Positions 1,248 through 63,400 of a stretch of DNA of 64,000 bases are shown here, piece after piece (position 1 is the first letter of the stretch; every line of letters starts with the position of its first letter). The notes beneath the pieces are model-generated. The model did no database searches, was not told the origin of the DNA, and worked only from the letters and a program-made list of their open reading frames with translations. This DNA is from an uncultured bacterium (GTDB lineage: Bacteria; Armatimonadota; Abditibacteriia; Abditibacteriales; Abditibacteriaceae). The stretch covers positions 1 to 64,000 of the forward strand of contig CAWJLW010000004.1 in NCBI GenBank assembly GCA_963843795.1. The letters run 5' to 3'. A program made the position numbers and the translations under genes.

Positions 1248-1285
1248 AAACCGGCCCTGCAAGTACTTGCAGGGCGGGTTTTTGC
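1248..1285 (+). terminator. Hairpin terminator after higA built on the GCAAGTACTTGC palindrome
   Basis: AAACCGGCCCTGCAAGTACTTGCAGGGCGGGTTTTT. Confidence 0.55.
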
Positions 1286-1345
1286 GTGTTTTTCTTAACG
1301 GACGGCATAGGGCGGGCTTATGGATGGGCGAGAAGGAAGCCGCCC

Positions 1346-2273
1346 ATGACCCACAAGCCCCAATCGCCCCCGCACATCGCCACAACGCCGACCGCGCCCG
1401 ACGACGAGGGCGAATTGGCGCTTTATGAACTGCCCAACCTCTTGCACGGCGCACGCTTCAAATTGCACCCGCCCGCCTTGAGCCCAGCGCGCCGAAATCG
1501 CCGGAGCCTTGACCTATCTCGACAGCAGAGACCCCACGCGGGCCGCACTGGTCAAACGCTGTCTGCGCATGGCGGCAGTGATGGCCCAAGAAGCCACCGA
1601 ACTGCTGAGCGAGGGCATGGATTGGGCGACCATCGAGCGCTTGTTTGCCCCCGACGAAGGCGAGTTTCAGGACAGCCCCCAGCATTGGCTCGCCATTGCG
1701 CGCAGCCCGTCGCGTCCCGTTCAAATCGTCACGCCCGCCGCACCAGTCACCATTGAAGCCACGACACCAGCCGAAGCCACCGTAGCCGCGCCCTCAAAAC
1801 CAACCGCCAAAGACCCCGTGCCCGACCGCACCACACTTTACCCCGAAGAAGCGGCCCACCCTGAAGATGTGTGGCCCGACCCGATGCCACCGCGTGACCC
1901 TTTGCCCGCCCCGCGCAAGGCGTCACTGCAAAAGCACGGGCGCACGCTGCGCAACGAGTGCAACGCCGAGCAGCGGCGCTTCTATGCCATCGCGGGCGCG
2001 CATGGACTGCCGACCGCAACCGCAGCGGGTGACGCCATCCGCGAAGCGCTCTCCGAACTCTTTCAAATCCCCATCGCCAGCCGCCGCGAGCTGACGGCGC
2101 GCCAGTGGAGCCAAGCGGCTTCCGCCATCGAAACCCACGACCTGCATTGGACGACCCAGCCCAAGCATCCCAAGCCCAAAGCCGCATCCAACGGCCACCC
2201 GTCTGCCAACGGCTACTCGTCTGCTAATGGCACCATCGCATCCAATGGCCACGCGAGACCGTTGCGCCCCTGA
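1346..2273 (+). CDS. Hypothetical protein, apparently frameshifted near 1480-1510
   Basis: ORF from ATG 1346 (after AAGGAAG) overlaps the 1509-2273 ORF in another frame. Pro/Ala-rich linker. Confidence 0.5.
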
Positions 2274-2543
2274 TGAGGGAAGCGGTGACGGCGTGCCGTT
2301 GCGACACGGGCGGATTTTCCTTTCGCCAAACACATTGCTCTTTCAAGGAGCCGAAGCTGCGGCGCTGTGCGCGCCCCGCAAGAGGCACCCCAGTTTCGGA
2401 TTGGTCGCTTTGCGCTCTGCGCTTGCTGATCCTGCAACCGGGGAACTGCGTTTTTCCCCACCTCTGGCGTTGCGCGCTTGACAGCGCCCGCCTTGTTTTC
2501 GGCATCAAGAGCAATCACGCTTTTGACATTGAAAGGAAAGACA

Positions 2544-8035: not shown

Positions 8036-8422
8036 AGGTCAATGGATAAAACTAATTGACTTACTATGATGCCACACTTTTTGACGGAAGCGGCGACTGT
8101 CTGCCCAATAATGCTTCGGCCCATGTGCTCAGGCCCGACAATAGCGTTTTGCAAGTACTTGCTGGCCACATTGACCGGATGTAGGATCGCTTGTGCAGTC
8201 TCGTCTTTCTATGTGTTGTGAGGCGTTACTTTCCGCAGCCAGCAGTCATCGAGCCAACCTTTGTTCTGAAATCTACCAATCCACGCGCCTAATGACTTCA
8301 AGGCCCGGCCCGCTCCATTCGCTGCGCTCCCGTGTGGAACCGTTGAAGTCGGCGCGCGCTCGGGTAAGCCGCTTTCAGAAGGTTGGCAATGCCGCTGGCC
8401 TCAACACAAAAGGGAACACCCC

Positions 8423-12149: not shown

Positions 12150-12181
12150 TTTTGTGCTGCAAGTACTTGCAGCACAAAACT
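12148..12181. terminator. 34-bp perfect palindrome around GCAAGTACTTGC at the resolvase stop
   Basis: AGTTTTGTGCTGCAAGTACTTGCAGCACAAAACT. Confidence 0.55.
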
Positions 12182-13425: not shown

Positions 13426-13905
13426 CTATTGATCCATGCTCCATCGCTGCGCCAAATAAACACCATGCATCGAAGTCGTGCTCAAAACATCGTCTTCGGC
13501 CACCAGCGCGGGCCAGTTCACAGCAGGCAGGTTCTTGGATGGGGGCAGGGCAATTCCGCACAGCGTGACCGTCGCATCCGCAAATTCGATATCGCCGCCC
13601 GAAATGTTGCTCAACTGCAAATGCACCCGACGATGCACATCAAAGCGGCGCGCGACCGCATCCGGCAGATCAGGCGTCAAGCGCGTGCGATGGGCGGGCG
13701 CAAGTACTTGCAGACCGGCAACCGGTTCGATGTCGAGGCTCAGGATCAGAGCGAAATTGGCGGCGACCGTGGGCGCTTCCAAAAACGTCAGACCATTGAG
13801 ATCGACAATTCCGTTCACTTGCGCCCCGGCAGCGAGCGGCCCAGTCGTGGAGAGCTTAAATTGCGCGTGCACGATCAATTCCGGCAAACCTTCAATTTCA
13901 AACAT
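13426..13905 (-). CDS. Hypothetical beta-rich virion protein at the end of the structural operon
   Basis: AAAGGA RBS, codon usage consistent with the operon, position. Confidence 0.65.
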   Translation of the reverse strand: MFEIEGLPELIVHAQFKLSTTGPLAAGAQVNGIVDLNGLTFLEAPTVAANFALILSLDIEPVAGLQVLAPAHRTRLTPDLPDAVARRFDVHRRVHLQLSNISGGDIEFADATVTLCGIALPPSKNLPAVNWPALVAEDDVLSTTSMHGVYLAQRWSMDQ

Positions 13906-13962: not shown

Positions 13963-16061
13963 CTAATTCGCCGCCGTCAGATCGCTTTCGCGCGGCACTT
14001 GCAAAGTCGCCGTAAAACTCAGATTAAAGCCCGAACCGACGAGCGCCCACGGCGAAATGGCGCGATTCTGAAAACGCGCCAGATACCAGCTCCCATCCGT
14101 GCGCCGTGTCGTCGCGATCAGGTTGTCAATCGTGACGGGTGACGTGCCCCCAGCCAGCACATTGCCACTGCCCGCGACAATCGTTTCGGTCAGGGCATCC
14201 AACCAAAAGACCGTACCCTCGGGCACGCCCCGCGCCGCACGATAAATCCCGTCCTCATCTTCGAGCCATACCGTACCGTCCGAACTGCCACTGAGGGCAC
14301 CGCGCAAGAAAGGCGCATTGCCCCGATAATCGCACGCCGCCACTGGCTCAAACGCGAAGTCACCCAACCCTTGCACTGTGCCATCGGCAAGTACTTGCGC
14401 CAGCAGCCCCGAATCATCACCAAAGCGCACCGTTCCATCGTCGCCGATGAGCTTAATGAAGCTTATCGCTGCGGTATGTGCAAGTACTTGCAGCGCGCTA
14501 TTATCGCCTTTTTTCCAGCGATAAATTCGATCTTCGCCAGTAGCCAAGGCCACCCATTCACCACTCACATCAATTTCTAAAATCGACATATCCAAATCGG
14601 CGCGGCGCCGGGTTTCCAGTGCGCCGTTTTCGATCCAGCTTTCATACAACGCCGCGCTGCCAACGTCACCATAGACGCGCAAATAATGAGCATCGGCACC
14701 CGTCCCAAGTGACTCAATGAACCGAGCCGCGCGACTTTCGCCATAGGGCGCTTCGAGCGTCGAATACTGCACGCCGTCATCACCGGCAGCGTCGAGATCA
14801 AGGCTCACAAACTTGTCCTCGCACACCGCCAAAAGCCGCGCACCGCGCACGCTCAGGTCACTCACCACGATACCCGCGGGCACGCTGTGCGTTTGCTCCA
14901 AGCCCTCGGGCGTAAGCAGATACACCACTTCTGACGTATAGATGCGCAGCTGAATCGGCAGCGTCCTGGCGCGTTTTGATGACCAAGCCATCCAACTCGT
15001 AGAACACGGTTTTTTCGCGCCGCGAGCGCCGCACGCGCAGAATCGCGACCTCGGTCGGCAGCGTGATCGTGCCATCCGAAGCGCGCAAGCCCAAAAGCGG
15101 TTCATCGCTGTGATTGGTCACGGCTTGCATCAACCCGTGGCTCGCTTCCAAAGCGGCCAGTTCGGTGGGCGTTGGATTGGCGGGCGGCGGCGAATCGGCG
15201 GGCGGAGGACTCGCGACCGCCGGTTCGTAGTAAAAGGTGTCGGCTTCACACGTCGGCGGATCGAGAATCATATCGACTTGAACGCTATCGAGCAAGCCCT
15301 GTACCCACGAACACGAAGTCGCCAAAGGCCACCTCACTGCGCAGCGTGTGATTCACATTGACGGTGATTTCGACCTCATTGGAGCAGCCACCCGCATCGA
15401 GGACGACCGCGCGCAGCTTGACTTGTCCTTGCCAGGCTTCGAGCGTAGCGGGCACGGTCGCATAAAACTGTTTGGTATTGCCGGGGGCACGTTTGACGCC
15501 CGCAAGCGGCGTCCCGGCATAGCTCAAGGTCACCGGCGTTGAGGCGTCGAGTGCGAGCGGCCCACTGACTTGCACGACAATCTGTTGCAGATCGTGAAGG
15601 GTATCGCCCTCGGCGATTCCCACGAACGTTATCGTATTCGCGCTGCGCAGTTCGGCCACCAAGGGCGGTCCCAGAGCACTGCACGCGCTGCCATTGCAGG
15701 CGCGCGCGCGATAGGTATACGGTCGAAGCGTCACGACATCGGTATCGGTGAAGGTATCGCTGGCACTGGTCAAAGACGCCACCGGTGCTTGTGAAACTCC
15801 CTGGGCCAGATCATCGCGAAAAAGCTCCACACGATCCCAGATTCCGGGTGCTTCGGGCCAGGGCGGGCTGCCGATTGTGAAAGCTGGCGGTGCGCAGGTG
15901 TGCGCTGTGAGAACGGGCGCATCGGGAACAGCGGGCGCTTCGCCGCCGCCATTGCCATCGCAGCAGATGGTTTCCAATAAAATGGCGGGGCCAGGAGTTG
16001 AGGGTGGGGCGGGTGGCGACGTGGTGAAGGTGCCGATTGCGCCGGGAGTTTCAGTAGCCAT
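13963..16061 (-). CDS. FN3/Ig-like plus beta-propeller-like tail/adhesion protein split by frameshifts into three ORFs
   Basis: FTDTDVVTLRPYTYRARACNGSACSALG (FN3). Overlapping ORFs 15285-16061, 14858-15337 and 13963-15105. Confidence 0.6.
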
Positions 16062-16081
16062 AGGAATTGGGCAGGACTTGC

Positions 16082-19982: not shown

Positions 19983-22518
19983 TTAATGAACGGCATTCAA
20001 AACCGGCACCACCGCAATGCCAGGATCGACAATCGCCACCAGATCGAACTTGTGCCCGCGTTTGGGCAGCCACAATTCGCGCGCGTGCGGAAGCGCGATA
20101 TTGAACTCGGCAAGTACTTGCGGGTTGGTAATGCGCAGTTCGTGAATCGAATTCCAACGCCGCCGTGCCATCGACCCGCCCCCAAAGACGCTGCTCATCC
20201 GCGCACATCGCCTCAAAAGCCGCGACCTCTTCCACGTTCTGAAACCAGACCGCGTTGATCTCACCCGGCGCGCTCAATTCCATCCAACCAATGCGGATCG
20301 TCGAACCCTCGCCCGTGCCATCTTGCCCGGCGTGCGCGTCGTAAACGTCCTGGGCGTGATTGGAGCACGCCACCCGCTCCACCAGGTCATCGGTGCAGTA
20401 TTCGACGGTGCTCTGCCCACCTTGCCCGCCGCCGCTCACCACCACATCGGCTATCGCCGCACCCGCGCCCACGCCCCTGGCCCCGGTGCGCACGAACAAG
20501 CCCTGGCTCACATCGGCGTAGTCTTGCATGATGCCAGTAATCGCGTTGTCGCCCGAAGGCGAGCCGGTCGGTGCATAGACGCTCGATACCCGAATGCCCG
20601 CCGCCGCCGCTTGTTGCGCAATCAGATTCGCGTGCACGTCATCAAGCCCGGCCTGGTATTGGTCATCCAAACCCGCGGGCAAGTCATCGGTGATGAGCAC
20701 GGCAAGCTTCAAGGCCGCATCGCGCCACGGCACATCGAAGTCGCCGACTTGTTGCCCTCCAGGGCGCGCACTGGCGCTGAGATTATTCACGACCGTATTC
20801 AAGGCTTCGTCGCTGGCCTCGGGAGGGTTGAGATTCTGCGTTTGCAGCGCGCCCCCGCCCGCTTCCAACGCGCGCATCGCCAGTTCAAACTCGTCCCAGT
20901 TCCGGGCGCTAAAGTTGACGTTCACATAAATGCCGAAATCGAAGGTGACCAGCGCGACCCGGTAATCGCCGCCCGAAACTTCTTCGATTTGGGCGCGCAG
21001 GCCCAGGAGTTCGTTGACCACGTTTTGGATCGCCACTCCCATCGAACCCGAAATATCCAACACAATCGCCAGGTCAATCGCGCCGTAATCGGGTGGCGTG
21101 GGTGGCGTGCGCGTCACTACCCCCTGGCAAGTACCGGCGGTGAAGCGAAGGCCGCACCAGTTATCGACATCATAGGGCAAACTTTGCCCCTCTCCCAGCC
21201 CATAACGCAACGGATCGCCGGAGTTGTCGAGTTGCAGATAGATAGCGCCGTCCGGCACCTCGCCCGCAGCCAGCCACGCATCGGGCGGCGTTGCCCACAC
21301 CAAAAAGGGTGGAAACGCGCTGCCCACAAAGCCACTGCCATTGAGCGTATCCAGGTCGAGCGCGAATGACGACGATGTCGCATCCCAGCCAAAGTCCACC
21401 GTCGGCGCGCCACTGCCCGCTTGCACGCCACCATTGCGCGCGCCATAGGTGCCCTCGGCAGCATACGAACCCGGCAGCGCGTGACGCCCAAAAAACTTGC
21501 GCCCCACGATGCGCAGACATTCGCTTTGCTTGTCGGGCGTGAGCTCGCTTTTGCCACCCAACACCAGATAATCGCACGGTAGGGCCAGCTGCAACGTGCC
21601 GTCACCCGAGCCGACAAAGCGGAACATTCGCGGCTCGAAACGCGAGTTGACGCCGAAGCAGTAAATACCGGTCGCATACGGAATTACGCGACTCATATCC
21701 CAGTTACGTTTGTGCCAGCGCGCAAGTACTTGCGGCCCGCCCGAAACGAAGCGCGCGAGCATTTGCAGGTTGTCGCGCGATTCGTCGACTTCCTCGCTAT
21801 CAACGATTGTCGTGGTCTCTTCGTGAGGCGCTTTGGCCTCTTCATAGGTGCTGCCTTTCTCGGCGCCCACATCTTCCAAAATCGCCCAGAAGGTTTCTTT
21901 GGCGCACAGCGCAGCGCTCAACTGTTTGGGCAAGACCGGGCCGAGCTGGTTATTATCGTAAACGACATTCGCGGCACCTTTGGGCGTATTGAAGCGGGCG
22001 CCATAGCGCGCATTGGCGATCTCGCTATCGACTGCGCGCGCAAGTACTTGCAGTCCGTCGTAGCGCGAAAGCTGGGCGAAGCTCTGCCCGCCCGCGCCGA
22101 CCGGCACCAGTTGCGGCACCAGTTGCGGCACCAGTTGCGGCACCAGTTGCGGTGTATCAGCGCGCGGAAAATACCGCATCGTGCACAGTGGCGTGCCGAC
22201 GAAGAGCGCGCCTTCGCGGTCGCGCCAGATCGAACGCCCTGCCTGCGCTGTCACCAATGCGCCACTGCCCTCAAGTGTCGATGCGCTTTGTCCAAAGGGA
22301 AACGCCTGGCCAGATGTGGCGCTGCCATAGGCGGTCGCCAGAACATTCCAACTGCTATCGATGTGGAGCAGTGCCGTCATGCTCCCATTGCGTCCCGCCG
22401 CGTAACCGGTGAGCCACAGTGTGCCGTCGATGTCGTGAAAAATATCAAATACGCCGCGCAAACGCGGCTCGATGACAAAGGGCGCCAGCGTGCCGTCGTT
22501 GTCATTACGTCGCGCCAC
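19983..22518 (-). CDS. vWA (MIDAS) domain-containing tail-associated protein with frameshifted ends
   Basis: IDLAIVLDISGSM, YRVALVTF, PEASDEAL, LAVLITDD. The C-terminus probably continues in the 19983-20264 frame. Confidence 0.8.
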
Positions 22519-22745
22519 AAGGCCGCGCCCGCTGTCGCGCCCAGATGCACGTTTTCGTCACCGCACCAAGTACTTGCGGATTGAATTTTCAGGCACGACC
22601 ATTCGCCCGCGCCCGCAGCAGTTTGAGCCTGAACCCAGAACAGCAAAGAGCGCCCGGCGCTGCCCAGTGTCGCGGCACTAATCGCCGCACCATAAATCCC
22701 ATTGACTGGGGTGCTGACGACGCCCGAAGCCAGCGTGGCGCCACG

Positions 22746-23231
22746 TTAGGCATCGCACAAACGCCACTGCCAGCCCTCGCCCTCACCCAACGCAATTGGC
22801 TCCGAGCTGTCCCAGCGCACCAATAAGCCGACATCGGGTGCGACAATCGCGCGCTCATCGATGCCCTGATATTGCGTTGCTGCAAGTACTTGCAGGCCGG
22901 TTACACGAGCGGAGAGAAAGCCACTTGCGGGTGCATCGGCTGCGGGCGGCGCGAAGCCTTCATAGCGCGCGCCGAGGAAAGGCCGTAGGGCGCGGCTTTG
23001 AATCCAGGTCGCGCTGTCGGCTGCGACCAAACCGGTCTGGCCACCGAACAGCGGCGTGTTCGATGCGCTCGTGCGCGTCCAACAGTGCAGCGCGCAGTCG
23101 GAGATGGCGATGCCGAACGCGGGTGAGGTGCGCAAGACCCATTCGCGGGGGAATTGAGGAGAAGTCATGGCAGAGGATTCGTTCACGATTTTGGGGGCAG
23201 CGCTGCCCGCACCAGTTCGCGCCAGGTGCAA
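22746..23231 (-). CDS. Hypothetical virion protein, possibly the N-terminal part of the vWA gene
   Basis: Minus-strand ORF in the operon with overlapping ORF fragments to 22377. Confidence 0.45.
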   Translation of the reverse strand: MHLARTGAGSAAPKIVNESSAMTSPQFPREWVLRTSPAFGIAISDCALHCWTRTSASNTPLFGGQTGLVAADSATWIQSRALRPFLGARYEGFAPPAADAPASGFLSARVTGLQVLAATQYQGIDERAIVAPDVGLLVRWDSSEPIALGEGEGWQWRLCDA

Positions 23232-23330
23232 TTAATGTCTAGGTGCAATTGATGTCCGGCACTGTGACCTTGGCCAGACCTTTTCCATGCCGCGATCCGA
23301 CTGGTCGCCGTCGCATAAAAACAAGATTTT

Positions 23331-24998
23331 TCATATCCCGATTCCTATGCCGACTGATAGGTTCGAGGGCCGCAATTTTTTGAGGCCTACTCCGACTGCA
23401 CTGGCCAAATTAGCCGCCAGTTTTTGATGCGCGCTCGCCAGAAAATGCAGGCCGCCATCGATCTCGCCGGTTGGGTTTGTGCTGGGGTTGTAGAGGGTGA
23501 GATTGACCCCATTCCACGCTTTGGCCGCGTAGATCACTTTGCTGGAATACGTCGGATCGGCGGCGATTTGCTGCAAGGCCGTCGCGCATGCGGCCAGGTT
23601 TAAGCCCTTCGCGCTGGTGGCCCCTTGCGGTGTCGCGGGCGGGATGAGAACAATTTTGCCCGTGGTTGTCAATCCCGTCAATGCGGTATCGACTTGGGCC
23701 AGAACATTGGCTTTGTATTGCGCCGCCGTTGTGGTGTTGGAATTGATGTCGTTGGTGCCTTCCAGCAAAAAACAGTAGTCGAAGCCAGTACGCGCGTAGC
23801 TTACGATGTCGGCTTTACGGCTCGCCTGATTGATCGTATCGGTGCCCTGAATGCCAAGGTTAATATCTTCCCAGCCGCGCGCCTTGCACATTCGCCAAAG
23901 CCAGGAAGCGCGGTTGTCATAGCCCGTGTAAATCAGCCCCGTTGTGGGGTCTGGCGTGACGGTGTAAGGATTGGCTCCCTGCGTGTTACTATCGCCTATC
24001 CCTACGCAGCGTTTAGTCGGGACGGGCAAGCTCGCAGCGCGCGCGGCATTGAATGAACCTTGTGCGACATGATAGCTTTCAAACGGTTCGTTAATGGCAT
24101 GAGCGGCGGTCGCGGCGGGCGTGAAGGTGACTGTCGTGCCCGCGATGGCTGTGATTTTTACGTCTTGGCGATTGGTCGTCGTGCCCAGCCTCACCCAATG
24201 CCCAACCGCTAAATCCGTCGCGCTTGCAACACTGGCAGTGGTGGCTCCCGATGCAACACTGGCAGTTAGTCGCGTTCCGTTGAGCGCGCGAAAGCACGCG
24301 TAAACGTTCGTGGCGTAACTCAAATCATGATAGACGATTGTGTGCGCTGTGTTGCTGAGGCCCGTGCCCACGGTGTAAGGCGCATAAGCGTTGATCGATG
24401 GAAATTGATAAAGGACATCGAGCGCGCCGTCCACTGAAAGCGCATAGTTGCGATTGTTGGAATTGTGAACTAACTCCAAGCCGCTGCCCGTAAACCCGAA
24501 CTGCGCCACGAACGATCCATAGGGGCCAACACTCACACCTGCTGTGTTGCCGCGATCTTCTTTGTAGGCACCTTGGCGCGCGATGAGGGTGGTTTCACTG
24601 GGGCAAGTCAAACCCACGCTGCCATTGGTCAGGTTGTCGAGCAAATAGGCTTGCTTTTTGGCGACCGACACAATTTGTTCGCTCCCGCCGCTCAAGGTGA
24701 AGCCGCGCAGATAAGGATTGTACCGACAGCGCACCAGATGGTTGCCCGCCGCCAATCCGCTCGCCACTACCACATTCCCAAAACCCGTATTGGTGTAGTT
24801 CGTGAACGCACCGCCATCAATCGACACCTCCAGCGAGTTAAACCAGTCGTTGACCTGCAAATCGGTGAAGTGTCCAACAAAGGTCACTTCTTTGTTGTTC
24901 ATACCGAAGTCGTTGCGGATGCGCCCACCCTGCACACCGTGAATCCCATTCACGTCGATTTTACTCAGGTTGGTTGCGATGTCAAAAGTAGAAGGCAT
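23331..24998 (-). CDS. SGNH/GDSL-hydrolase domain fibre/spike protein
   Basis: CVGIGDSNTQG (block I), NLGIQG (II), LLEGTNDI (III), DGGLHF (V). Thr/Gly-rich beta N-terminus. Confidence 0.85.
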   Translation of the reverse strand: MPSTFDIATNLSKIDVNGIHGVQGGRIRNDFGMNNKEVTFVGHFTDLQVNDWFNSLEVSIDGGAFTNYTNTGFGNVVVASGLAAGNHLVRCRYNPYLRGFTLSGGSEQIVSVAKKQAYLLDNLTNGSVGLTCPSETTLIARQGAYKEDRGNTAGVSVGPYGSFVAQFGFTGSGLELVHNSNNRNYALSVDGALDVLYQFPSINAYAPYTVGTGLSNTAHTIVYHDLSYATNVYACFRALNGTRLTASVASGATTASVASATDLAVGHWVRLGTTTNRQDVKITAIAGTTVTFTPAATAAHAINEPFESYHVAQGSFNAARAASLPVPTKRCVGIGDSNTQGANPYTVTPDPTTGLIYTGYDNRASWLWRMCKARGWEDINLGIQGTDTINQASRKADIVSYARTGFDYCFLLEGTNDINSNTTTAAQYKANVLAQVDTALTGLTTTGKIVLIPPATPQGATSAKGLNLAACATALQQIAADPTYSSKVIYAAKAWNGVNLTLYNPSTNPTGEIDGGLHFLASAHQKLAANLASAVGVGLKKLRPSNLSVGIGIGI

Positions 24999-25194
24999 AA
25001 ATTAAGGAGAAGGCATAAATTAAGAAGGAGCTATAAATTAAAAAGTTGTCGCCATAAAATAAACCGTATCGTTTGGTTTTAGCACCTCACGCTCCGGCAG
25101 TTCGGTGGATGAGCCCAAGCGGGCTTCCACCCAACGCTTGCGAGATATCAATTCTAATCCCCATTCCGGGCGTAGTTAAATCTCACCCATGTAG

Positions 25195-25491
25195 TTAAAT
25201 CTCACCCATAATGCCGGTCGCCGTTGTTCCGGTTGCGAACACTTTGCGCACGCGAATCGAATGGGCGATACCAGCAGCCAGCGCACCATCAGGAAACGTG
25301 AGAGTGCGGCCCGCTGCATTGACGACTTTCAAGGTTCCGCTACCGGTAATGCGGATCGCGCGGGTCACATATTCCAATTCGTCGGTGTCGCTGGGCGTAA
25401 CCAGAAACTGGTCGTCGCTGGCGGCGTTGACGCCATCGCGGTATTTGCTCGAATGACGATTGGCGTAAGGGTCTTTGGCTACAATGGGCAT
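25195..25491 (-). CDS. Capsid spike base protein (RcGTA Rcc01079-like)
   Basis: VTPSDTDEL..TRAIRITGSGTLKV....G.TLTF..LAAG..HSIRVRKVFATGTTATGI pattern. Confidence 0.82.
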   Translation of the reverse strand: MPIVAKDPYANRHSSKYRDGVNAASDDQFLVTPSDTDELEYVTRAIRITGSGTLKVVNAAGRTLTFPDGALAAGIAHSIRVRKVFATGTTATGIMGEI

Positions 25492-25609
25492 AATCTCTCC
25501 TTGAGCGGACTGTGTTGGTTGATTCCGGCTCTACTCTTTGTTCCGGCTCTACTCTTTGTTCCGGCACTACTCTTCGTTCTGGCACTATTACCGGTTCTGT
25601 CACTACTCC

Positions 25610-26584: not shown

Positions 26585-26596
26585 GTGAACCGCGGT

Positions 26597-26863
26597 TCAC
26601 TTTTTGTATCGTGGTCCACTTTTTCTATTGGTTTGCAGTGGCGCGAGCCAGCCCGCGCTGCCCAGCGGATCGCCACAGCGCAGATAACTCACCCAGTTCC
26701 CGTCGTCGTCATACTCACCACCGTTTTGCACCACTTCGGGTGAACCGCCCGCAAATAGCGTTTCGCGCGCGGGCAGACCGCGCAGGGCCGCACTCAGCGC
26801 GCTATCGACAGCGAGCTGGGTTTGCCTTTGTAAGATCACATCGTCATCGAGAGCACCACTCAT
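26597..26863 (-). CDS. Small hypothetical virion protein
   Basis: GAGG RBS and operon position. Confidence 0.55.
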   Translation of the reverse strand: MSGALDDDVILQRQTQLAVDSALSAALRGLPARETLFAGGSPEVVQNGGEYDDDGNWVSYLRCGDPLGSAGWLAPLQTNRKSGPRYKK

Positions 26864-26901
26864 TCATTTAAACCTCATCATCATTTGCACCTCATCATCA
26901 T

Positions 26902-35097: not shown

Positions 35098-35151
35098 CGG
35101 TAAATTTGTCCTTTGGAAAAATGGTAATTTGAGTGGCTTTGCAGACAGCGT

Positions 35152-39436: not shown

Positions 39437-40094
39437 AGGGTTGTTTCACGGCGAGCGCGCCCAGAAACGGTAAAAAACCGCCCGGTTGCGCGGGCATCGC
39501 TTCCTGTTGCAGTTCGCCCAGATACCAGTACGTCGGGTGATACATGTGCACCACGCTGTAGAATTCGCCTTCTGCGGGCGCATCACCTGCGGGCGCATCA
39601 CCACCGGGCGTCCAAATCAATTCATCACCCGAAAGCGTGCAGTCGGTACCAAGGGCAAAGGGCCGGTTGCCCTGCATCACGCTCAGGAGCGAAAAGGCAC
39701 CGCCGCGTTTCAAACTATCGCTTGCGCCCTCGCCACGCCGATAGGTGTCGGCATGGCGCGCGGCCATGAGTGGAAAATAAAATTTGTCGGCAAAACCCGG
39801 TAGGATCTCATCGGGCATGCCCGCCAGCGTCGCCGTGCCCGAAGGAATCAGGCCCAGTTCGGCATCGTTGATGCGCCGCGTGGTTTTGTCCAGATACACG
39901 CGCACTTCGGGCGCGAGCGCGCGATGGGTGTAAATCTGCCCCTGCGAACAGTTGCCACAGCCACGGCTGTTATCGCTATCGCCGCTCGCCTGACACGAAC
40001 ACGGCAACGCGGACCACCATTCAACCGGCTGACCATGACGGCGGATCAGCGCGCGAAAATGCTCGGGATGGAGGGAGGCGATAGCGCTTAACAT
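39393..40094 (-). CDS. Head closure/neck protein, Herelleviridae-like, with CxC..CxxC
   Basis: LIRRHGQPVEWWSALPCSC..GCGNCSQGQIY. Likely ATG at 40094. Confidence 0.72.
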   Translation of the reverse strand: MLSAIASLHPEHFRALIRRHGQPVEWWSALPCSCQASGDSDNSRGCGNCSQGQIYTHRALAPEVRVYLDKTTRRINDAELGLIPSGTATLAGMPDEILPGFADKFYFPLMAARHADTYRRGEGASDSLKRGGAFSLLSVMQGNRPFALGTDCTLSGDELIWTPGGDAPAGDAPAEGEFYSVVHMYHPTYWYLGELQQEAMPAQPGGFLPFLGALAVKQPFAGDDVGIEGSEYV

Positions 40095-40191
40095 AAGAAG
40101 AAACCCATTTGAGAAAAGGAAGGCAGAAAAGTGAACCGTGGTGCACTGCAAGTACTTTCCACTGCAAGTACTTGCAGCAGCGGTACGGTAT

Positions 40192-41028
40192 TTAGCTGGA
40201 GCAGATGAGCGGGCCGGAAAAGCCCGCCAGGTATTGGGTTTTGATGTCGGCGATGTCGTCGCTATAGCTCTTGGTTTCGGTCGCGAAGCGTCCCGCAACG
40301 AACGACTCGCTCAAGCCGAACATGCCGATCGAACCACCACCGGCACCGATGGCGCGCTCGCAGGCTTTGAGTACGGCGATACAAGCGCCCAGGCGCACGG
40401 CTTTGAGCAGTTGCGTCACGTCGTAATCGGGCGAGGCGTCGTAGGGATCTTCGGTTTCGGGATGGAAGTCATCAGGCAAAAAGCCCGCGGTGTAATCGAC
40501 GGTGACCAGAGAAGGGAGTGAGGCGCGATGGATCGGGCCGCCGGTCATCGGCAAGAGGATCATCGCGCCCGCGCCATAGGTCGCGCTGCCCACAATCGGA
40601 ATTACGTTCACGACACCCAGGCGCCCTTCAAAGCTGATCCAGTTGCGCGGATATTCGACGGCTTCGAACACATCCGGGCCTTGGCCGTAGCGAATCGCCA
40701 CGCGCTGCACCGACTGGATCGGGCGCCGATAGGTTTTGATGCGTCCCTGGCGCATCCAGTCATCGCGCACGAATGGATACGCGTCATCGAGGCGCGTGTA
40801 ATCGGTGCCGCGCACCAGACCCTCATCGAGCGGGCGCGATTTGATGACCTGCTGAAAGAGGTAGGTGTGGAGCGAATTTTCGATCTCTGATTGCGCTTCA
40901 CCGATGCGCTGCTCAATGATGCGCGTTTGCTGGTCGGGAGTGCCCAGAGCGGTGAGAAACATTTCCATGCCCTGACCGGACAGTTCATCGCGCACGGAAT
41001 CCACCGTGATGGCTAAAGAGCGGGGCAT
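40192..41028 (-). CDS. Head-tail adaptor, Herelleviridae-like
   Basis: IGEAQSEIE..YPF...DW..IKTYRRPIQSV..YPRNWI..VTVDYTAGF. Confidence 0.75.
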   Translation of the reverse strand: MPRSLAITVDSVRDELSGQGMEMFLTALGTPDQQTRIIEQRIGEAQSEIENSLHTYLFQQVIKSRPLDEGLVRGTDYTRLDDAYPFVRDDWMRQGRIKTYRRPIQSVQRVAIRYGQGPDVFEAVEYPRNWISFEGRLGVVNVIPIVGSATYGAGAMILLPMTGGPIHRASLPSLVTVDYTAGFLPDDFHPETEDPYDASPDYDVTQLLKAVRLGACIAVLKACERAIGAGGGSIGMFGLSESFVAGRFATETKSYSDDIADIKTQYLAGFSGPLICSS

Positions 41029-41121
41029 GATGCAAAAAACCTTTCAAACGGTCAAACGGTCAAACGGTCAAACGAAAAATCAAATGGAGAAAAGTAAAAA
41101 ATTGCGGGCAAAAGTGCACGA

Positions 41122-41454
41122 CTAGCCGCCCTGTTCGCGAATCTGGTCGCGGAGGTTACGCACCATGGCGTGAAATGCGAAGGGGCCAACGGTGACCACA
41201 TCGTTGCGAATATCGTTGAGCAGTTGGCCCAGCGAACTCGCCAGGAGACCCTCGGGAGTTTTCAGAACGAAAAACTTCTCGTTGCGGCGCGGGTCGCTTT
41301 GCTCGGCGTTGCGGCGGATCGCAATCAGCGGCCAGCCCAGCAAACGCAGCGTGGCTGCCATGGCAATCGCCGGTGTCGCATATTCGCGCGGCGCGAGCTC
41401 TTTTTCGTGCTCTTGGCTGGTTGGGGCAGAAGGGGAGAGTTGGATGTTGTCCAC
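41122..41454 (-). CDS. DUF5659-like small protein
   Basis: YATPAIAMAATLRLLGWPLIAIRR..DPRR..FFV. GTG at 41454 after AAGGA. Confidence 0.55.
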   Translation of the reverse strand: MDNIQLSPSAPTSQEHEKELAPREYATPAIAMAATLRLLGWPLIAIRRNAEQSDPRRNEKFFVLKTPEGLLASSLGQLLNDIRNDVVTVGPFAFHAMVRNLRDQIREQGG

Positions 41455-41589
41455 GAAAATAATTCCTTGCGGTGTAAATACAATTGAAAAATGCCACCCG
41501 AAAAGACAAAACGCCGCTGCAAGTACGAGAAGTCGTTTGACTTGCAGCGGCGTAATGCCCAACGGATTGTAAAGTGAAAAAACTAATGC

Positions 41590-42324
41590 CTATGCAGCCG
41601 CGTTGGCTTTGGCGGCGTTGGCTTTGGCCGCATTAGCGGCGCGCGTGCGAGCCGCCTTCTGGGCCGGTGTTAAAACATCGGTTTCGGTTTCTTCGATTTC
41701 ACCGGTTTCTTCGCTGTCGTCCGATGCATCATCGTCGGAGGTTTCATCATCGGTCACAGGGTTGTTGTCGCCAGAACCAGCACCAGAATCAGTTCCTGTA
41801 TCATCGACTTTCGGCGGTTCGACTTTCAGCGTTTCGACTTTCGGCGGTTCGAGCAGCTCGATTTCGATGTGCATCGGGACCTCAATGCCGGTTTTGGTAC
41901 CGAGCGAGCCTTGAAGCGCTTCACGCACGGCGTGGGCATTTTCCAGACTGACAACAGCCACGCCGTTTTCGTCGAAGCTGATCGGTGAGTTGTCGGGAGC
42001 CATCAGACGGTCATTGGCCAGAGTGGGAATGGTGAGGCGCGCCAGTTCACCGACCGCGCGCAGTTCGCCATCGACTTCAATCGCGCGGTTTTTCCAGGCT
42101 TCAATTTCTGCGCGCGCCTGATCACTGGCAGGAACAAAGATCGCTTCGTTGCGTTCGGTTTGGGCATTGTGCACGGAGATGGCGCACAGGGAAGCAGCGG
42201 TCGCGACATCGACTTGGGCACGTCCCTCATGGTCGAAGTGGATGCTAGTTTCGTTGACGGTGGTCGATTGACCAAAAAGTTCGGGGATCAGGGTGAAGAT
42301 AGCAAGTGTGGAGGAGTTCATCAC
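41590..42324 (-). CDS. Hypothetical head-associated protein with an acidic tail
   Basis: Internal duplication (IHFDHEGRAQV / ISFDENGVAVV). Follows the capsid genes. Confidence 0.65.
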   Translation of the reverse strand: MMNSSTLAIFTLIPELFGQSTTVNETSIHFDHEGRAQVDVATAASLCAISVHNAQTERNEAIFVPASDQARAEIEAWKNRAIEVDGELRAVGELARLTIPTLANDRLMAPDNSPISFDENGVAVVSLENAHAVREALQGSLGTKTGIEVPMHIEIELLEPPKVETLKVEPPKVDDTGTDSGAGSGDNNPVTDDETSDDDASDDSEETGEIEETETDVLTPAQKAARTRAANAAKANAAKANAAA

Positions 42325-42433
42325 GGATGTTCGGAGATAAGTTCGAAGAAATGTTCGGAGTTGTGAGAGATGTTCGGAGTTCAATTGAAGCCTGCAAGTA
42401 CTTACTTCAATATTTGCGGACTCCAAACGCTTC

Positions 42434-42763
42434 TCAGGTCAAATCGCGGTACTGGATCACGAGCGTGCCAGCGGTCGCGGTGCCGCCGGTGTTGTTGATG
42501 GTGTCGGCTGCCGACACACTAAATTCGCCCGTCAGATTCTGGACGGTTGTGCCATTGTGATGGATGACCGAAACGATCTCATCACCGACCGAGATACCGG
42601 TCACCGTGAAATTGCCCGCCGCTCCCCCGGCCACGACAGCCGGAACCACATTGGTGCGCTTGCCAAGGGCATTGAGCAAAAGGCCCAGACGATTGTCCTT
42701 GTAGAGGCCAGGAGCCGCGTGATTGAGTGCATTAAGCACTGGGTTTACAAACGTTTTGAACAT
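42434..42763 (-). CDS. Small capsid decoration-like protein
   Basis: Directly after the MCP. TVTGISVGDEIVSV..VSAADTINNTGGTATAGTLVIQY. Confidence 0.65.
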   Translation of the reverse strand: MFKTFVNPVLNALNHAAPGLYKDNRLGLLLNALGKRTNVVPAVVAGGAAGNFTVTGISVGDEIVSVIHHNGTTVQNLTGEFSVSAADTINNTGGTATAGTLVIQYRDLT

Positions 42764-42959
42764 ATCAATCCTTCTTTGATTTTTAATCCAATCAGCAACA
42801 AAAAACACCACTGCCCACGGTCTAAAACCATGAGACAGTGGTGTTTTCGATGGATTGTCGGTCGCTACTACTGGCCGCCTAATTTATCGCTTCCGCTTTG
42901 GCTAACAAGCCAATGGCTAAAAGCCGATGACTAAAAGCCGATGACTAAAAGCCGATGGC

Positions 42960-44516
42960 TTACGCACCGAAGCCGTTGAGCGGTCCGATGTTGCGAATGA
43001 CCACGTTGTGCGTGCGGGTCAAGCCTTGAGGGGTCCAGCCGCAGATGTAGGCCGCTTCGTTGGCCAGCACGTCTTGGGGCAGAATGACTTTAGCGATCGG
43101 ATGCAACATACGGATCATCCAGCTCGCGCCACCGACACCGTTTGGACGGTTGCTCATCGCAAACGCGGACGAACAACCGGGCACGAATTCGCCCTTGTCC
43201 TCAAAGGTAACCGTCGCGCCATTGGCCACGCCGTTGGCCGGAATGCGCGTCAGGTAACGACGCGTACCACCGACCGCCGCGCGCCAGATTTCAAAGTAAT
43301 CGACCGAGTAATCACCGGCAGTGTCCGCGCCATTGGTGATCGTCAAAACTGCTTTCTGGCTGCCGTTGACCGTGACCGAAGCCGCAATCGGGCGCACATC
43401 CGAACGACCGTTGGTGCCGACCGCACTCACGGAGTAGGTGTAGACACCAGCGGGCAGTTTGCCGCCCAGCGGGTTGGTCACACTGCCCGCAGAACTGTTG
43501 GCACCCGTGACGCTGGTCGGTTTGACCGGCGCTTCGGGATCGGCTCCAAAGGTGTCATCGGGGAAGATCGGGTCGAGCATCAAGTCCATGTGGAACTTGC
43601 TTTCGCCGACTTTGCCGCCCATCGCCTTGACCATCTGGCCCTCGGGAATCAGTCCCAGGGTCAAACGCTGACCGGTTTCGGAACGCACGATGGATTCCAT
43701 CATGATTTCCAAGTCGGCCTCGGTCTGGTTGCCATGCCAGAAGTCCGTCCACACCGCACCCTTGGCGCGCAAGGTTTTCGTGATGATCGGCAAGGTTTCG
43801 GGCGTGATCGGCTCGCCCTTCAAGTCGATGATCGTCACGGTGCGATAATCGCTGCCATCATGGGCCAGAACGGTTTGCTGAATCAAACCATTCGGCTCGT
43901 AATGGTTCACGGAAAAGTTTCCGTGCCAACCGAGATAATTATTGTCTAAAATCAGCGATTCCATCGCTGCCATCGAGTTGACCTGATCTGCGCCGCCGAC
44001 CACGGGATCGTTGTTGAACGACAGCGTGCGCTGCGAGTTCAGGGTGGTGAAGGTCTGCCAGCGCTGACCCGTCCAGCGCACCGGCGTGACTTCACGCTCC
44101 ATTTTCGGGTCGCGCGAACGCAGACCGCCGCTTTTGATGTTGGTGCGCAGATAACCGCCGCCACGGTGACGACCGTAGGATTGCATCTGCGTCATTTCGA
44201 CCACGTCGCTGTCGCAGGGAACCTGCTTCAAGAAGTTCCATAGTGGAGCGTGATCTTTGCTGTTGAGTTCGGCGTTGGCCAGGGTCTGGGTCAAATCCTG
44301 AATTTTGAGCGACTCGCCGCCGACTGTGCCCGCAATCGCGATGTTGCTGTCGCTGGTCAAGGCTTTGCTCAAACCGCTGCCGTTGCTGGCCGCTGTGCCC
44401 ATCGCATTGACCACATCAGTGTTGACCATGGCGTCGGTTACTTGTTCGGCGCCGTAACGCACCGCGAGCTGATCGCGATGGTAGTTCTGAAAATCTTCTA
44501 CGCTTAAAATACTCAC
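42960..44516 (-). CDS. Major capsid protein, SPO1/Herelleviridae-like with an FN3/Ig insertion
   Basis: LSKALTS..GGESLKIQDL..LWNFLKQ..SDVVEM..SYG, EPNGLI, IIDLKG, YTYSVSAV..GRS, YFEIWR and VTFEDKGEFVPG. GTG at 44516 after GGAG. Confidence 0.9.
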   Translation of the reverse strand: MSILSVEDFQNYHRDQLAVRYGAEQVTDAMVNTDVVNAMGTAASNGSGLSKALTSDSNIAIAGTVGGESLKIQDLTQTLANAELNSKDHAPLWNFLKQVPCDSDVVEMTQMQSYGRHRGGGYLRTNIKSGGLRSRDPKMEREVTPVRWTGQRWQTFTTLNSQRTLSFNNDPVVGGADQVNSMAAMESLILDNNYLGWHGNFSVNHYEPNGLIQQTVLAHDGSDYRTVTIIDLKGEPITPETLPIITKTLRAKGAVWTDFWHGNQTEADLEIMMESIVRSETGQRLTLGLIPEGQMVKAMGGKVGESKFHMDLMLDPIFPDDTFGADPEAPVKPTSVTGANSSAGSVTNPLGGKLPAGVYTYSVSAVGTNGRSDVRPIAASVTVNGSQKAVLTITNGADTAGDYSVDYFEIWRAAVGGTRRYLTRIPANGVANGATVTFEDKGEFVPGCSSAFAMSNRPNGVGGASWMIRMLHPIAKVILPQDVLANEAAYICGWTPQGLTRTHNVVIRNIGPLNGFGA

Positions 44517-44740
44517 TGCATTCTCCACAAACCGGAATTGAGGAGTCGGGTTAATTTGGAGTAGGGTGAGCAAACACGGTACAAACGACTGGTTACAACC
44601 AATGACGAACAACCAATGACGATTAAACGGTGCGACCAGGGCCATCTGTGGCCTCGTTCAAACCGACCGAAGCGGATTTGAAACGCAATTTTCGAAAGCA
44701 GCTAAGCTGAAGCAGCTAAGCTGAAACCGCTAAGCCGTAG

Positions 44741-49465: not shown

Positions 49466-49583
49466 TGGCGCAGAAGCCTTGAAGCACGAAGCTGCAACCA
49501 ATTGGCGCGAGGGAAAGAACACAAACAATTGGTGCAAGTACTTGCAGCGCAATTTGAAACCAAGCACCAACAACATAATGCCG

Positions 49584-53159: not shown

Positions 53160-53267
53160 GAGAGTGGTTCGAATTTAAAAGAGAGAATTTCGCACCTATC
53201 CCGCAACCAACCCGCAAGTACTTGCGGGATAGGTGCGAGATGGGTGCGGAATGGGTGCGGAGAGGTT

Positions 53268-60017: not shown

Positions 60018-60054
60018 GATGGCAAAACAACAACCGAAGTTTCAGGTGAGAAAT

Positions 60055-60396
60055 TCAAAGGTTGGACGCGATAATGCGTTGACGGCGCGCGAGGCGAAAA
60101 TTCTGGTGGCAGCGCGCCAAGTTCTGGCGCGCCTTCAAGTACTGGCGACTGGCATCGGCTTTGGCTTGCGGATCGGTCGCACCTTTTACCGCGCGACTGA
60201 GAGCTGGCCACTGCTCATTCAGGTGCTTGATCATGCCCGCCGCATCGGTTTCGAGTTGGCGCGCGCGCGCTTCGGTTTGCGTGCGCACGGTCGAGCTGCG
60301 TTCCAACTGCGCGCGAATCGCCGTGTGAACGGTTTGCGCGGCTTCCATTGGTGTGGTTTGTGAGTCTTGTGACTTGGTATCGGGAGTATTTTTCAT
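60055..60396 (-). CDS. Hypothetical helical protein
   Basis: Fills the gap between two large minus-strand genes. Confidence 0.6.
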   Translation of the reverse strand: MKNTPDTKSQDSQTTPMEAAQTVHTAIRAQLERSSTVRTQTEARARQLETDAAGMIKHLNEQWPALSRAVKGATDPQAKADASRQYLKARQNLARCHQNFRLARRQRIIASNL

Positions 60397-60471
60397 AAAC
60401 CAAAAACAAACGACAAACGCCGCTGCAAGTACTTGCAGCGGCGTAATGCCAGATCAGATTTAAAAGCGGTT

Positions 60472-63400
60472 TCATGTGCCAGCGGACATGCCAGCGGGCG
60501 TGCCACCGGACACCGCAGATTTTACTAACTTTTCGCGTGCGTTCGTCACTTCCTGGCGAATTTTGGCGCTCAAGCCGGTGTCGTCGATTAATTCGGCGGG
60601 TGTGGTCAGCGCATCGCGCATATCGTCTTTGCGTTCCAAGCGTGCACGCGCCGTGCGTTCGAGTTGTGTGTCGGTCAACAGATGGTGCACGGTCACATCG
60701 CGCGTCTGGCCCACGCGATAGGCGCGTCCCTCGCGCTGGCGAAAGGTCATCGCGGTATCGGGTGTATCGTAATGGATGATTTGGTTAGCGCGAGGGGCAT
60801 TCCAGCCTGCTGCGCCCGCATCGGAATAAACGCAAACATCGAAACGCGGATCGTTGACATAACGATTGGCCGAAGCGTCCCACTGGGGCGAAAAGCCCAG
60901 TTGGCGTTCCTGCTTTTCTTGTGCGCCCATCGAGCCATCAATTTTCACGACGCGCACGCCTTGAGACTTCAAATGATCGTGGATCAAGTCCACCGCCGCG
61001 CGATTGTGCGCAAAGATGACTTTGGGATGTTCACCGGCGGGATGCTCTTGGAGGATCGCATCGAGCTGGCGGAGCTTGGTGCCTTGCGGATGAAAGTTCA
61101 CCACGCGATTGAGCGCCGCGCGCCGCAGCATACCCAGCGAACTTTGCAAGCGCTTGGCGACCGCTTCGTGTTCGCTTTGCGGCACCCCTTCAAACGAACC
61201 GGGCGAAAGCGCTTGCACGGCTTCGATATCGACGCGCTCACCACGCCGCGCCGCGCGCGCGCGCTGATACATCGCAAGCGCTGTGTCATAGTCGCGCTTT
61301 TGCGGCGGCGTAAGGTCGAGCTGATGAGTTTGGGTGCGCTTTTGGGTATCGGGATCAATTGATTCTGCGTATTGGTAGGGTGCCATTTCGGCTTGGAGCG
61401 CTTCGCTGGCCGCGGGCGTATTGACCGCGTAACGGCGCAGAAACTCGCTTTTGGTGACGACACCGCGCGAGTGCGCGTCCGGGTGATCGTCTTCGACATA
61501 ACGAGACGGCGCAACTTTGGCGAGCGCTGAAAAACTCTCGCTGGCATCATTCTTCACGGGATCCGCGCTCATCGAAGCGAAATACGGCTTATCTTCCATG
61601 AAGCCATCCAGCGCGTTGGCCATCGCACTGTTTTCTTTACCCTGGCGGTTCAAAAGTCCATGCGCTTCATCGGTCACTGCCATATCGAAGTGCCAGCCCT
61701 GGGCTTCGGTCGCGGCTTTGATCGCCGCCGTGCGTTCTTGAGTGGGCGCGTCCTGCAAGTACTTGCGGGCCGCTTTTTCATCGCCGCCAAACCGCTGCTG
61801 GGCCAGCGCCCAATTCAAGTCATCGCGCAGCGCCTGGTGCGTCACGACGCAAATATCGTGGCCGCTTTCGTGATGATAGGCGGCGCGGCGCGTTTTGGCA
61901 TCGACACCGCCTTGGGCGAACCATTTGGGTGCTTCAGGACTGGTCACATCATAAAAGCGCGCGGCTTCGGCGCCGAAGTTTTCCTGCACTTGCGAGGGCA
62001 CAGCAAAGATCGAACGCTTGAGCTTGTTCTGGGCTTTGAGATGCGAATGGCACGCCAGACCGATACTCGTTTTGCCGCTTCCGGTGCCGAGCGTGAACAT
62101 CATGCGGCCCACAGCTTCGAGCTGTTTGATCGCGCGCTGACGCTTGATGTTATCGCCCGTGCTCATGTCGATATCACCCGCCGCCGCAGTGCCTTTGGTG
62201 AGGTGGACATTGGGAATCAAACCTTTGACCATCGCTTCGGCAGCCGTTCCGAGGGTCACACGCTGGGTCGCCAGCTGTTGCCCCTGGGTTTGGGTCGCTT
62301 CCTGCCCAAAGAGCGCGGCACCGCGATCCCGCTCGGCGCGCTGGTCGTCCAGTCGATCTTTGACGCCGCCTTCGGCGAACTTGCCGCCCGCGCGGTTCAT
62401 GGCTTTGGCCTGCTCCGAGCGCGCCTGGGCTTCGACTTCGCGCCGTTTCTCAGGTGGTAGGGACGCCAAAAAATGTTTTTCGGCGTGCGCGACCGGCGTG
62501 TGCACGGTTTTCCAATCGCGACCGGTCTGCTGCCGGAAGCCTTTGGCAAAGCGCGTGGCAAAGTCACCCTTCATGGTGTCGCAAATCGCCGCATAAGCGC
62601 GCTTTTCGCCACCCATATCGCCCACATATTGCGCCCAGCGCCCGCTCGCGGTCGCCACGTTGCCCGCGTTGAAATCACCGCCAACGCCCGGTGTGCCAAA
62701 CATCGTCGTATACGCCCGTGCGCGCAATTGCGCCTGAATGCGCGACCGCGCCTCGCGCGCGACAACGTTTTCGGGCCTGTCGTTTCCGGGCCTGCCGTCT
62801 CCGGACCTATCGTCTCCGGGCCTATCGTCATTCGTTTCAAGTTCGGGCACCACATCCTGATATTGACCGCTGCGGGCATCCGTTACGCGCCGTTCGGGCG
62901 TGTAACCGAGCGTTTGGGCATGGGCGCGCGCGGCTTCAATCACGGCACGGTCATCACTTAGATCCACGCTGGCAAAAGCGTGAGGCTCGGGCGCATCGCC
63001 GAACAAGCCGCCGCCGCTTTCCTCATCGCTTTGCTTCCACTGCGCTTGAATCGCGCGATAAGGGTCGCCCTCGGGCGCGCTGCGGGCCAAGTCGCGCCAC
63101 TGCTCCCACGCGCGGCGCTCATCGGGGGAAAGCGGCGAGATCGGCTCTTCACCGTTTTTGGGGTCGAGTCCAAAAACGTGCTCATAGGCGTAATCGCGCA
63201 CCGCACGCCGTCCGGCATGACCCAAATCGCCCACGCCGCCAAAGGCATGGCGAAGGCGCGGGTCCTGGATCGACACCTGGTGCAATAAGTCGCGCGTGGC
63301 ATCGGTCTGGGGCAGCGTTTGACGATGGACAGAAACCGCTTCGGAGGCGAGGCGACCGGCTTTGACTTCATTTTGCAACCAGCCCGCGTGATAGCCGCGC

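Follow-up and report, generated by a model that had tools for sequence, protein, structure and literature searches.

What is a 12-bp palindrome containing AGTACT doing sixteen times in 64 kb of bacterial DNA? The stretch concerned, here called the window, comprises bases 1–64,000 of contig C4 (100 kb) in the 4.30-Mb assembly G000 of an uncultured bacterium of the Abditibacteriaceae (Armatimonadota). An earlier note, made from the letters of the window, had proposed a lineage signature resembling HIP1 or uptake sequences, possibly tied to methylation or to a DNA-binding protein. We conclude that the palindrome is a real and selected DNA signal, restricted to one family and existing in dialects. 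Judged by comparison of the sequences, it is on balance probably a genome-wide, lineage-specific self-recognition signal for DNA uptake and recombination that has been spread by molecular drive.

Abundance, dialects and spacing of the palindrome

All sixteen exact copies lie where the earlier note had placed them (Table 1), and dinucleotide shuffles of the window with any copy numbered 0 of 100. The many near-copies that it mentioned are also present; allowing as many as two mismatches raises the matches to 28, where 2.3 would be expected, including 12 near-copies, five of which have one mismatch. Gene boundaries here and below are our own rough gene calls, made without a standard gene caller. 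On these calls eight of the 16 copies are in coding sequences (CDSs) and eight are intergenic, in keeping with the claim that both settings are used, and five of the eight intergenic copies are the tips of long hairpins. The statement that copies in CDSs read as QVLA is correct for six of the eight; the remaining two encode ASTC (20110) and KYL (61755). It is true that the palindrome is absent from the low-GC island at 8.9–11.3 kb, but this is uninformative. At the density of the window such an absence has a chance P = 0.55, and we rejected it as meaningful.

The motif belongs to the host chromosome, most copies are intergenic and many are in terminator-like hairpins, all of which had been missed in the earlier note. 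There are 2,567 exact copies in G000, where an order-4 Markov model expects 20, together with 506 copies having one mismatch, and the runner-up 12-bp palindrome has 33. Contig C6 (3.6 Mb) has 63 copies per 100 kb and the phage contig C4 has 24, with about one palindrome per 1.7 kb over the chromosome and resident phage. By location 1,796 copies (~70%) are intergenic, 746 are in CDSs and 25 straddle a boundary. The earlier note had allowed that the enrichment might disappear under a codon-aware model, or that the copies might be assembly artefacts. Neither is the case. A null model that preserves the encoded peptides and their codon usage predicts 4.7 gene copies where 742 are seen, and codon or amino-acid bias is rejected as the cause. 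QVLA is found 571 times, whereas its permutations average 43 (~13-fold), and ASTC 128 times against 3.5. An assembly artefact is rejected because the word is abundant in relatives from separate assemblies. The enrichment that the note had proposed to seek in the host chromosome and its relatives is found in the chromosome and in some of the kin, there as dialects with a GTAC core. The 16S gene has zero copies. Two 26-kb stretches have none either; their genes read from sequence as transposases and type I restriction subunits, and they look like insertion-sequence and restriction islands. Only 1 kb of multi-copy element DNA was located.

Spacer copies concentrate 5–35 nt past stop codons. Their flanks differ from copy to copy, but left and right co-vary, with pairing at positions 3–8 of 0.49–0.58 versus 0.27–0.41 in shuffles, and the paired flanks end in A and T runs. 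Stems are extended by at least 5 bp in 614 of 1,817 spacer copies of G000 versus 29 of the 746 gene copies, and in the latter flank co-variation is absent. The word is present in 657 of 975 terminator-like strand hits, where "terminator-like" follows our own sequence definition and termination is predicted. Among the gaps of at least 40 nt on C6, those holding a copy are 227/319 between convergent, 942/1,612 between tandem and 206/382 between divergent genes. The density is lowest between divergent genes, at 172 per 100 kb versus 392 between convergent genes.

Alignment of orthologues had been suggested as a means of distinguishing substitution from insertion. In comparisons with sampled relatives, where one site may count once per relative, 64 of 80 had no gap within three residues, and amino-acid identity at the sites was 0.19–0.38 versus 0.54–0.63 in controls. 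A metagenome scan for the word gave 33 loci, of which 26 with protein matches to G000 were pooled after removal of an overlapping locus and of six that were small or unmatched. In these 427 kb of DNA 391 of 504 AGTACT sit within CAAGTACTTG. Comparisons of G000 sites with the metagenome loci were ungapped in 25 of 33, again with amino-acid identity below that of controls, and eight of those retain AGTACT at the same offset (controls, 0.02%). The gene copies are mostly the product of in-place substitution at tolerant sites.

The exact 12-mer has at most three copies in each of 400 other genomes of the phylum. The shorter form RAGTACTY has 2,695–4,371 copies in six of 31 genomes of the class (54–418 for a backwards control in those six) and 0–396 in the others; among 228 genomes sampled from other families none exceeds 396. 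Within the family seven of 27 genomes have dialects with a GTAC core, using five distinct words, and in the remaining twenty none was found. From 8–86 kb samples, the dialect of G001 is CAAAGTACTTTG and that of G009, G015 and G019 is TCGAGTACTCGA; G012 has a loose GAGTACTC/RAGTACTY. The words are palindromic in six of the seven motif-positive genomes. That of G006 is asymmetric, WWTCGACCGTACT, and its 10-bp core has 2,981 copies (TCGACCGTAC, 2,981 versus 2 for a control), 1,508 on the forward and 1,473 on the reverse strand. It occurs as singles, some of them in genes, and as inverted pairs whose members lie two bases apart and which terminate in A and T runs; 97 kb of G006 contain 27 inverted pairs and 34 singles (18+/16−). 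Long stems of at least 5 bp are rare in other dialects (10/376 copies in G009, 0/77 in G012). Samples of 6–97 kb from the family's remaining 20 genomes and from two outgroups yielded no comparable word, the smallest samples being weak. In a quick rpoB tree the motif-free G017 is sister to G012, and the motif-free G003 is sister to that genus, from which it follows that the trait has been lost or gained more than once.

The core of the word is one that the family otherwise avoids. The observed/expected ratio of GTAC is 0.015–0.63 in motif-free family genomes and 0.84 in outgroups. Samples across the family also show strong avoidance of GATC, CTAG, GGWCC and many 6-bp palindromes, and in genus g5 GTAC is nearly absent, with 6 seen versus 403 expected. 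In the motif-free G020 (C179, C210) and G024 (C98, C508) the rare RAGTACTY copies cluster on single contigs, possibly by import from motif-positive kin or by binning error. An all-species genome scan gave one single-copy locus among the matches listed. One 22-bp copy, exact and solitary, in a record labelled as Acidobacteriota (L171) is chance or misbinned DNA.

The copies are evenly spread. Counts per 5–50 kb on C6, taken outside the first 100 kb and one island, have a variance/mean of 0.42–0.50 versus 0.93–1.23 for seven control hexamers, and 25 samples of G009 are also under-dispersed (mean 22.3, variance 10.1). The density of confident gene copies climbs 3.2-fold, from 14 to 44 per 100 kb, away from the nearest spacer copy, versus ratios of 0.81–1.23 for nine control words. 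When stratified by distance to gene ends, three of the four strata show this gap-filling trend; the density drops again more than 3.5 kb from the nearest spacer copy. Gaps above 4 kb number 78 versus 125 ± 6 in 200 randomisations. Gene copies outside hairpins (71, 113 and 376 by frame) have an A/T excess at 8–10 and 18–21 nt on either side, with a G/C excess between, in all three frames; G009 shows a fainter trace of this phasing. The A/T tracts thus flank the copies at a 10-bp phase, which points to double-stranded DNA being read over ~50 bp. Given the even spacing, the gap filling and the phased tracts, DNA rather than RNA is likely to be what is read.

What might read the word

Of the earlier proposal the lineage signature is supported, and it leans to the uptake-sequence side because of the shared-core dialects, the asymmetric inverted terminator pairs, the phased A/T flanks and the even spacing. 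A reader on the pilus or competence route, probably a two-fold symmetric complex bending ~50 bp, would favour fragments carrying one site or more. A point mutation that makes a new site would then be taken up and recombined more often, and so spread by molecular drive. The benefit of a new site would be greatest where there is none within 1–2 kb, and such a gain far from existing sites would even out the spacing. Terminators would offer the cheapest home for a site because the palindrome already folds. A change of reader would reset the dialect, and its loss would stop the drive. We further put forward as a possibility, falling a little short of probable, that this is a third, independently evolved DNA-uptake-sequence system outside the Proteobacteria, with a symmetric receptor wrapping ~50 bp and with dialects that alternate between palindromic and asymmetric forms, come and go among sister species, act as species barriers to gene flow, have occupied two-thirds of the host's terminator-like hairpins and are written into resident phages.

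The suggested ties to a DNA-binding protein and to methylation did not fare as well. G000 carries ComEA, ComEC, DprA, a ComF-like gene, RecA, secretins and a type IV pilus locus, and a reader was not identified among the competence, pilus, secretin and TetR candidates. The genes adjoining comEA, comEC, recA and the methylase fail to distinguish motif-positive from motif-free genomes. ComP (PF16732), a known receptor of uptake sequences, was matched in 0/5 genomes, with the control silent too and no search made for the predicted receptors ComN and PpdA; a PabI-type nuclease gave no match, its control being equally silent. Each genome has seven to eight secretin-domain matches (in G000, on C6), above the need of one pilus locus, and there are ~30 prepilin-type proteins alongside the secretins. 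No C5 (PF00145) or Dam-type (PF02086) methylase was matched in G000. There is one PF01555 methylase, of the beta class, with homologues in Abditibacterium utsteinense (77% identity), the Abditibacteriaceae and the Armatimonadota, names that would place the organism in this group. Its orthologues are 56–69% identical in motif-free genomes; one is present in G003, and none was found in G002, G026, G035 and G087. Since motif-free genomes have it, the methylase cannot alone set the presence or the dialect of the word.

Several observations weigh against uptake. No reader has been found. ComEC is present in 30/31 and ComEA in 29/31 genomes; both, like the pilus locus, are found in motif-free kin too, and when ComEC, ComEA, the pilus locus with its pilins, and the secretins were compared no feature separated motif-positive from motif-free genomes. 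Three pilins were compared, and each is neutral or acidic. Four pilus genes of G000, namely pilC, pilD and two that are pilin-like, are split (L153:1799-15195), and most relatives have them intact. Splitting extends to other conserved genes (12 of 96 were flagged as split or with a stop), so that indel errors of assembly are the likely cause. Genes without a G000 homologue are not clearly depleted in the word (G009, 68 versus 61–85; metagenome, 39 versus 51–53 per 100 kb). Gene copies are slightly clustered mutually, with 49 spacings below 300 nt versus 36 ± 5. Gaps near sites are found in 16/80 comparisons with sampled relatives versus 9–14% in controls and in 8/33 with metagenome loci versus 7%, and a few sites in the ASTC frame resemble 4-residue insertions. 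Six of the seven genomes have palindromic words, whereas the DNA uptake sequences (DUSs) of PMC3630211 are asymmetric. An intracellular chromosome-binding protein would fit the even spacing and helical phasing equally well.

Such a protein might be a cytoplasmic dimer, present in abundance, whose bending or wrapping of DNA organises or protects the chromosome, selection keeping about one site per 1–2 kb. We consider this unlikely, although it is a live rival, as is the ratchet described next. It would account for the two-fold symmetric words of six genomes, the A/T tracts phased at 10 bp, the under-dispersion in both G000 and G009 and the similar word density in genes without homologues, and the SlmA site GTGAGTACTCAC (PMC3020112) has GAGTACTC in common with the G009 and G012 dialects. 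However, there was no TetR-family match in G000, G001, G006, G015 or G019. There is no dip in density at the GC-skew peak (54–64 per 100 kb), and the low value between divergent genes speaks against it too, as do entire sister lineages without any such word and an asymmetric dialect. A little less probable again is an intracellular ratchet like that of HIP1, in which GTAC carries the mark of a methylase and near-matches are completed through biased repair or recombination, without any preference in uptake. Every dialect does contain the otherwise avoided GTAC, the beta-class methylase is kept across much of the family, and HIP1 boosts transformation in a way that depends on methylation (10.1101/2024.09.10.611283). 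The presence of methylase orthologues in motif-free genomes and the lack of a C5 or Dam-type match in G000 argue against it, the one-mismatch copies have no C-to-T excess at the core cytosine, and gap filling is not predicted by a local process.

The hairpins and the peak past stop codons might suggest a tag at the level of RNA, i.e. a terminator or stability hairpin of standard form, with GUAC in its loop, that is selected on transcripts. The frequency of the word in terminator-like hits and the co-variation of spacer flanks are as this would predict, but the gene copies do not co-vary, long stems are rare in G009 and G012, the singles of G006 are asymmetric and the phasing of flanks is helical. 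As the sole role this is largely refuted, and we regard it as very improbable. We give least credence to a selfish repeat of the repetitive extragenic palindromic (REP) type inserted by a Y1/RAYT transposase. The copies are 70% intergenic and hairpin-forming, a few apparent 4-residue insertions are seen and G000 has two Y1-like genes, one of which has a Pfam Y1 match. Yet most gene copies are gap-free in alignments, flanks vary between copies, and the Y1-like genes have inverted repeats of their own that are unrelated to the word. These genes and their repeats are likely a separate REP-type system.

The phage contig and other features

Contig C4 (window 13426-64000; see also L311-L318) looks like a temperate phage or phage-plasmid of ~100 kb, given its block of virion genes. 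It encodes a major head protein, tail genes, a weak tape-measure match, two large helicases, ParA and ArdC; most of its genes have no family match. We take the 2,249-residue protein to resemble the DarB-type anti-restriction proteins. Contigs from three sequencing runs covered mere fragments of window 8000-27999.

Relatives of the capsid, 41–43% identical, are found in four motif-free hosts. G023 has a colinear relative of the phage and G008, G011 and G022 have partial relatives. In the colinear contig (94 of 107 kb compared) AGTACT occurs only three times, and of seven window sites inside the alignments six are ungapped with other residues. It is therefore likely, on these alignments, that the phage lineage acquired the word of its host in place. 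The capsid matched no viral locus in a viral collection. That collection contained a 16-mer form in six loci, each with a single copy, and among 80 of 119 loci with the G009 dialect none had more than two copies.

Table 1. Copies of the palindrome, genes of the window (positions without a prefix) and related genes elsewhere in G000 (L-numbered loci)
Feature	Position	Strand	Remarks
Exact copy	1259..1270		Tip of terminator-like hairpin with T-run, −28.3 kcal/mol; 30 nt past HigB/helix-turn-helix (HTH) toxin-antitoxin pair
Exact copy	8151..8162		Intergenic, without extended hairpin
Exact copy	12159..12170		Tip of long hairpin, −23.7 kcal/mol; 10 nt past open reading frame (ORF) 11412-12149, ahead of parA
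Exact copy	13700..13711		CDS 13426-13905(−), LQVLA; G023 phage homologue ungapped there, residues differ
Exact copy	14387..14398		CDS ending 13963(−), AQVLA; homologue ungapped, residues differ
Exact copy	14480..14491		CDS ending 13963(−), LQVLA; homologue ungapped, residues differ
Exact copy	20110..20121		CDS 19915-22518(−), ASTC; beyond aligned part of homologue
Exact copy	21722..21733		CDS 19915-22518(−), PQVLA; homologue TETLG, ungapped
Exact copy	22040..22051		CDS 19915-22518(−), LQVLA; homologue TQLEA, ungapped
Exact copy	22882..22893		CDS ending 22746(−), LQVLA; gap in alignment at site
Exact copy	34017..34028		Intergenic hairpin tip with A-run, tail-gene region, −25.4 kcal/mol
One-mismatch copy (40148), then exact copy (40164)	40148..40175		Intergenic
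Exact copy	49534..49545		Intergenic (rough gene calls), without extended hairpin
Exact copy	53214..53225		Imperfect hairpin, 43 nt past stop of 2,249-residue helicase/methylase gene
Exact copy	60425..60436		Hairpin tip, −23.1 kcal/mol; 36 nt past helicase gene stop
Exact copy	61755..61766		Helicase CDS ending 60472(−), RKYLQ; homologue SEFLA, ungapped
Other one-mismatch copies	22566, 26559, 29616, 42394 (22566..42405)		Mismatch search
HigB/HTH toxin-antitoxin pair	448-1229
ArdC anti-restriction gene	2273-3289
Type I restriction subunit	5769-8035		Split over three ORFs
AbiEi antitoxin domain	10331-11215
ParA	12292-12849
Virion gene block	32161..44645	−	Major head protein 42960-44645, tail and weak tape-measure matches
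IS110-family transposase	47884-48909
2,249-residue protein	53268-60017	−	Strawberry-notch-type helicase domains, DUF6908, weak methylase match
Beta-class DNA methylase	L120:1483-2253	−	56–74% conserved across much of family, varied neighbourhoods
Two Y1/RAYT-like genes	L157:5841-6272, L158:5935-6357		Own inverted repeats; those at L158 start GTAG

Comparison with known systems

To our knowledge sequence-specific uptake of self DNA is established in two bacterial families only. If the uptake reading is true, this would be a third family-level system besides those of the Neisseriaceae and Pasteurellaceae. The family also provides a natural experiment, with five words in seven genomes, twenty genomes in which none was found and two sisters of which G012 has a word and G017 lacks one. 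Comparing gene content could directly name the reader. The gap-filling test offers a measurable mark of drive at the level of fragments that is applicable to HIP1 genomes. If uptake were confirmed, the word would also open a practical route to genetic tools in a lineage difficult to culture. Neither the 12-mer nor such a motif in this lineage was found in the literature covered, most subscription papers and supplements (with possible k-mer lists) lying outside that coverage.

Chi and KOPS (FtsK-orienting polar sequences) are strand-polar motifs, and REPs are repeats spread by insertion by a Y1 transposase. The present words have no strand polarity, being palindromes in six genomes and balanced between strands in G006 (1,508/1,473), and they show neither spread by insertion nor copies flanking a cognate Y1 transposase. 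The SlmA site GTGAGTACTCAC is also a 12-bp palindrome with AGTACT at its centre, and SlmA sites avoid the terminus (PMC3020112). SlmA sites require a TetR-fold protein and are excluded from the terminus, neither of which is seen here, and the exact SlmA site occurs once in G000. Campylobacter restricts uptake to RAATTY-methylated DNA (PMC10046745). Its RAATTY/CtsM system resembles the present one in having a palindromic motif, there with selective uptake, and a methylase without an evident partner nuclease. RAATTY is a degenerate 6-bp motif defined by methylation, in contrast to the strict 10–14-bp words with dialects found here.

The role of HIP1 has been a question for three decades. It has been linked to methylases, with periodicity at tens of kb (PMC4390886, PMC5861425), and is now tied to transformation (10.1101/2024.09.10.611283, PMC13756078). 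Its cognate methylases, Dam-type and mostly C5, recognise part of the word. Like HIP1, the present word is an iterated palindrome in genes and spacers that is kept at some orthologous positions, has lineage variants and has a proposed role in transformation. Unlike HIP1, it makes strong use of terminators, has one asymmetric dialect and, as far as the searched genomes go, is limited to a part of one family; GCGATCGC has 33 copies in G000, where a C5 or Dam-type methylase was not found.

The DUSs form dialects with a shared core, occupy permissive sites and occur as inverted pairs in terminators, with overlapping dyad pairs in Simonsiella muelleri; they are asymmetric and their receptor is a pilin (PMC3630211). 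About half of uptake sequences lie inside predicted terminators (10.1101/2025.10.24.684340). The thousands of strict 10–12-bp copies, shared-core dialects, terminator inverted pairs and permissive gene sites seen here are similar, and the inverted-pair layout of G006 is that described for the DUS (PMC3630211). The sequence is unrelated, most of the present dialects are perfect palindromes, the phylum is another and uptake is here proposed from sequence. Uptake signal sequences (USSs) have AT-rich flanks and an even spread ascribed to molecular drive (PMC7811141); they inflate the encoded peptides and are scarce in new DNA, rRNA and genes without homologues (PMC2817400). AT-rich flanks, fairly even spacing, inflated peptides and empty rRNA genes (16S here) are shared features. 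The present core differs in being symmetric with flanks on both sides, and the inflation of peptides is stronger (QVLA, 13-fold). As to newly acquired DNA, the islands are empty and the phage contig has 24 copies per 100 kb versus 63 on C6, but genes without homologues are not clearly depleted, which tells against uptake.

The canonical DUS has just 3 copies in G000, and the words that we take to be the USSs have 43 and 41. The word of the Abditibacteriaceae works most like a DUS or USS, yet on these counts it is a member of neither known family. With palindromic and asymmetric dialects built on one core, it links HIP-like and DUS-like signals.

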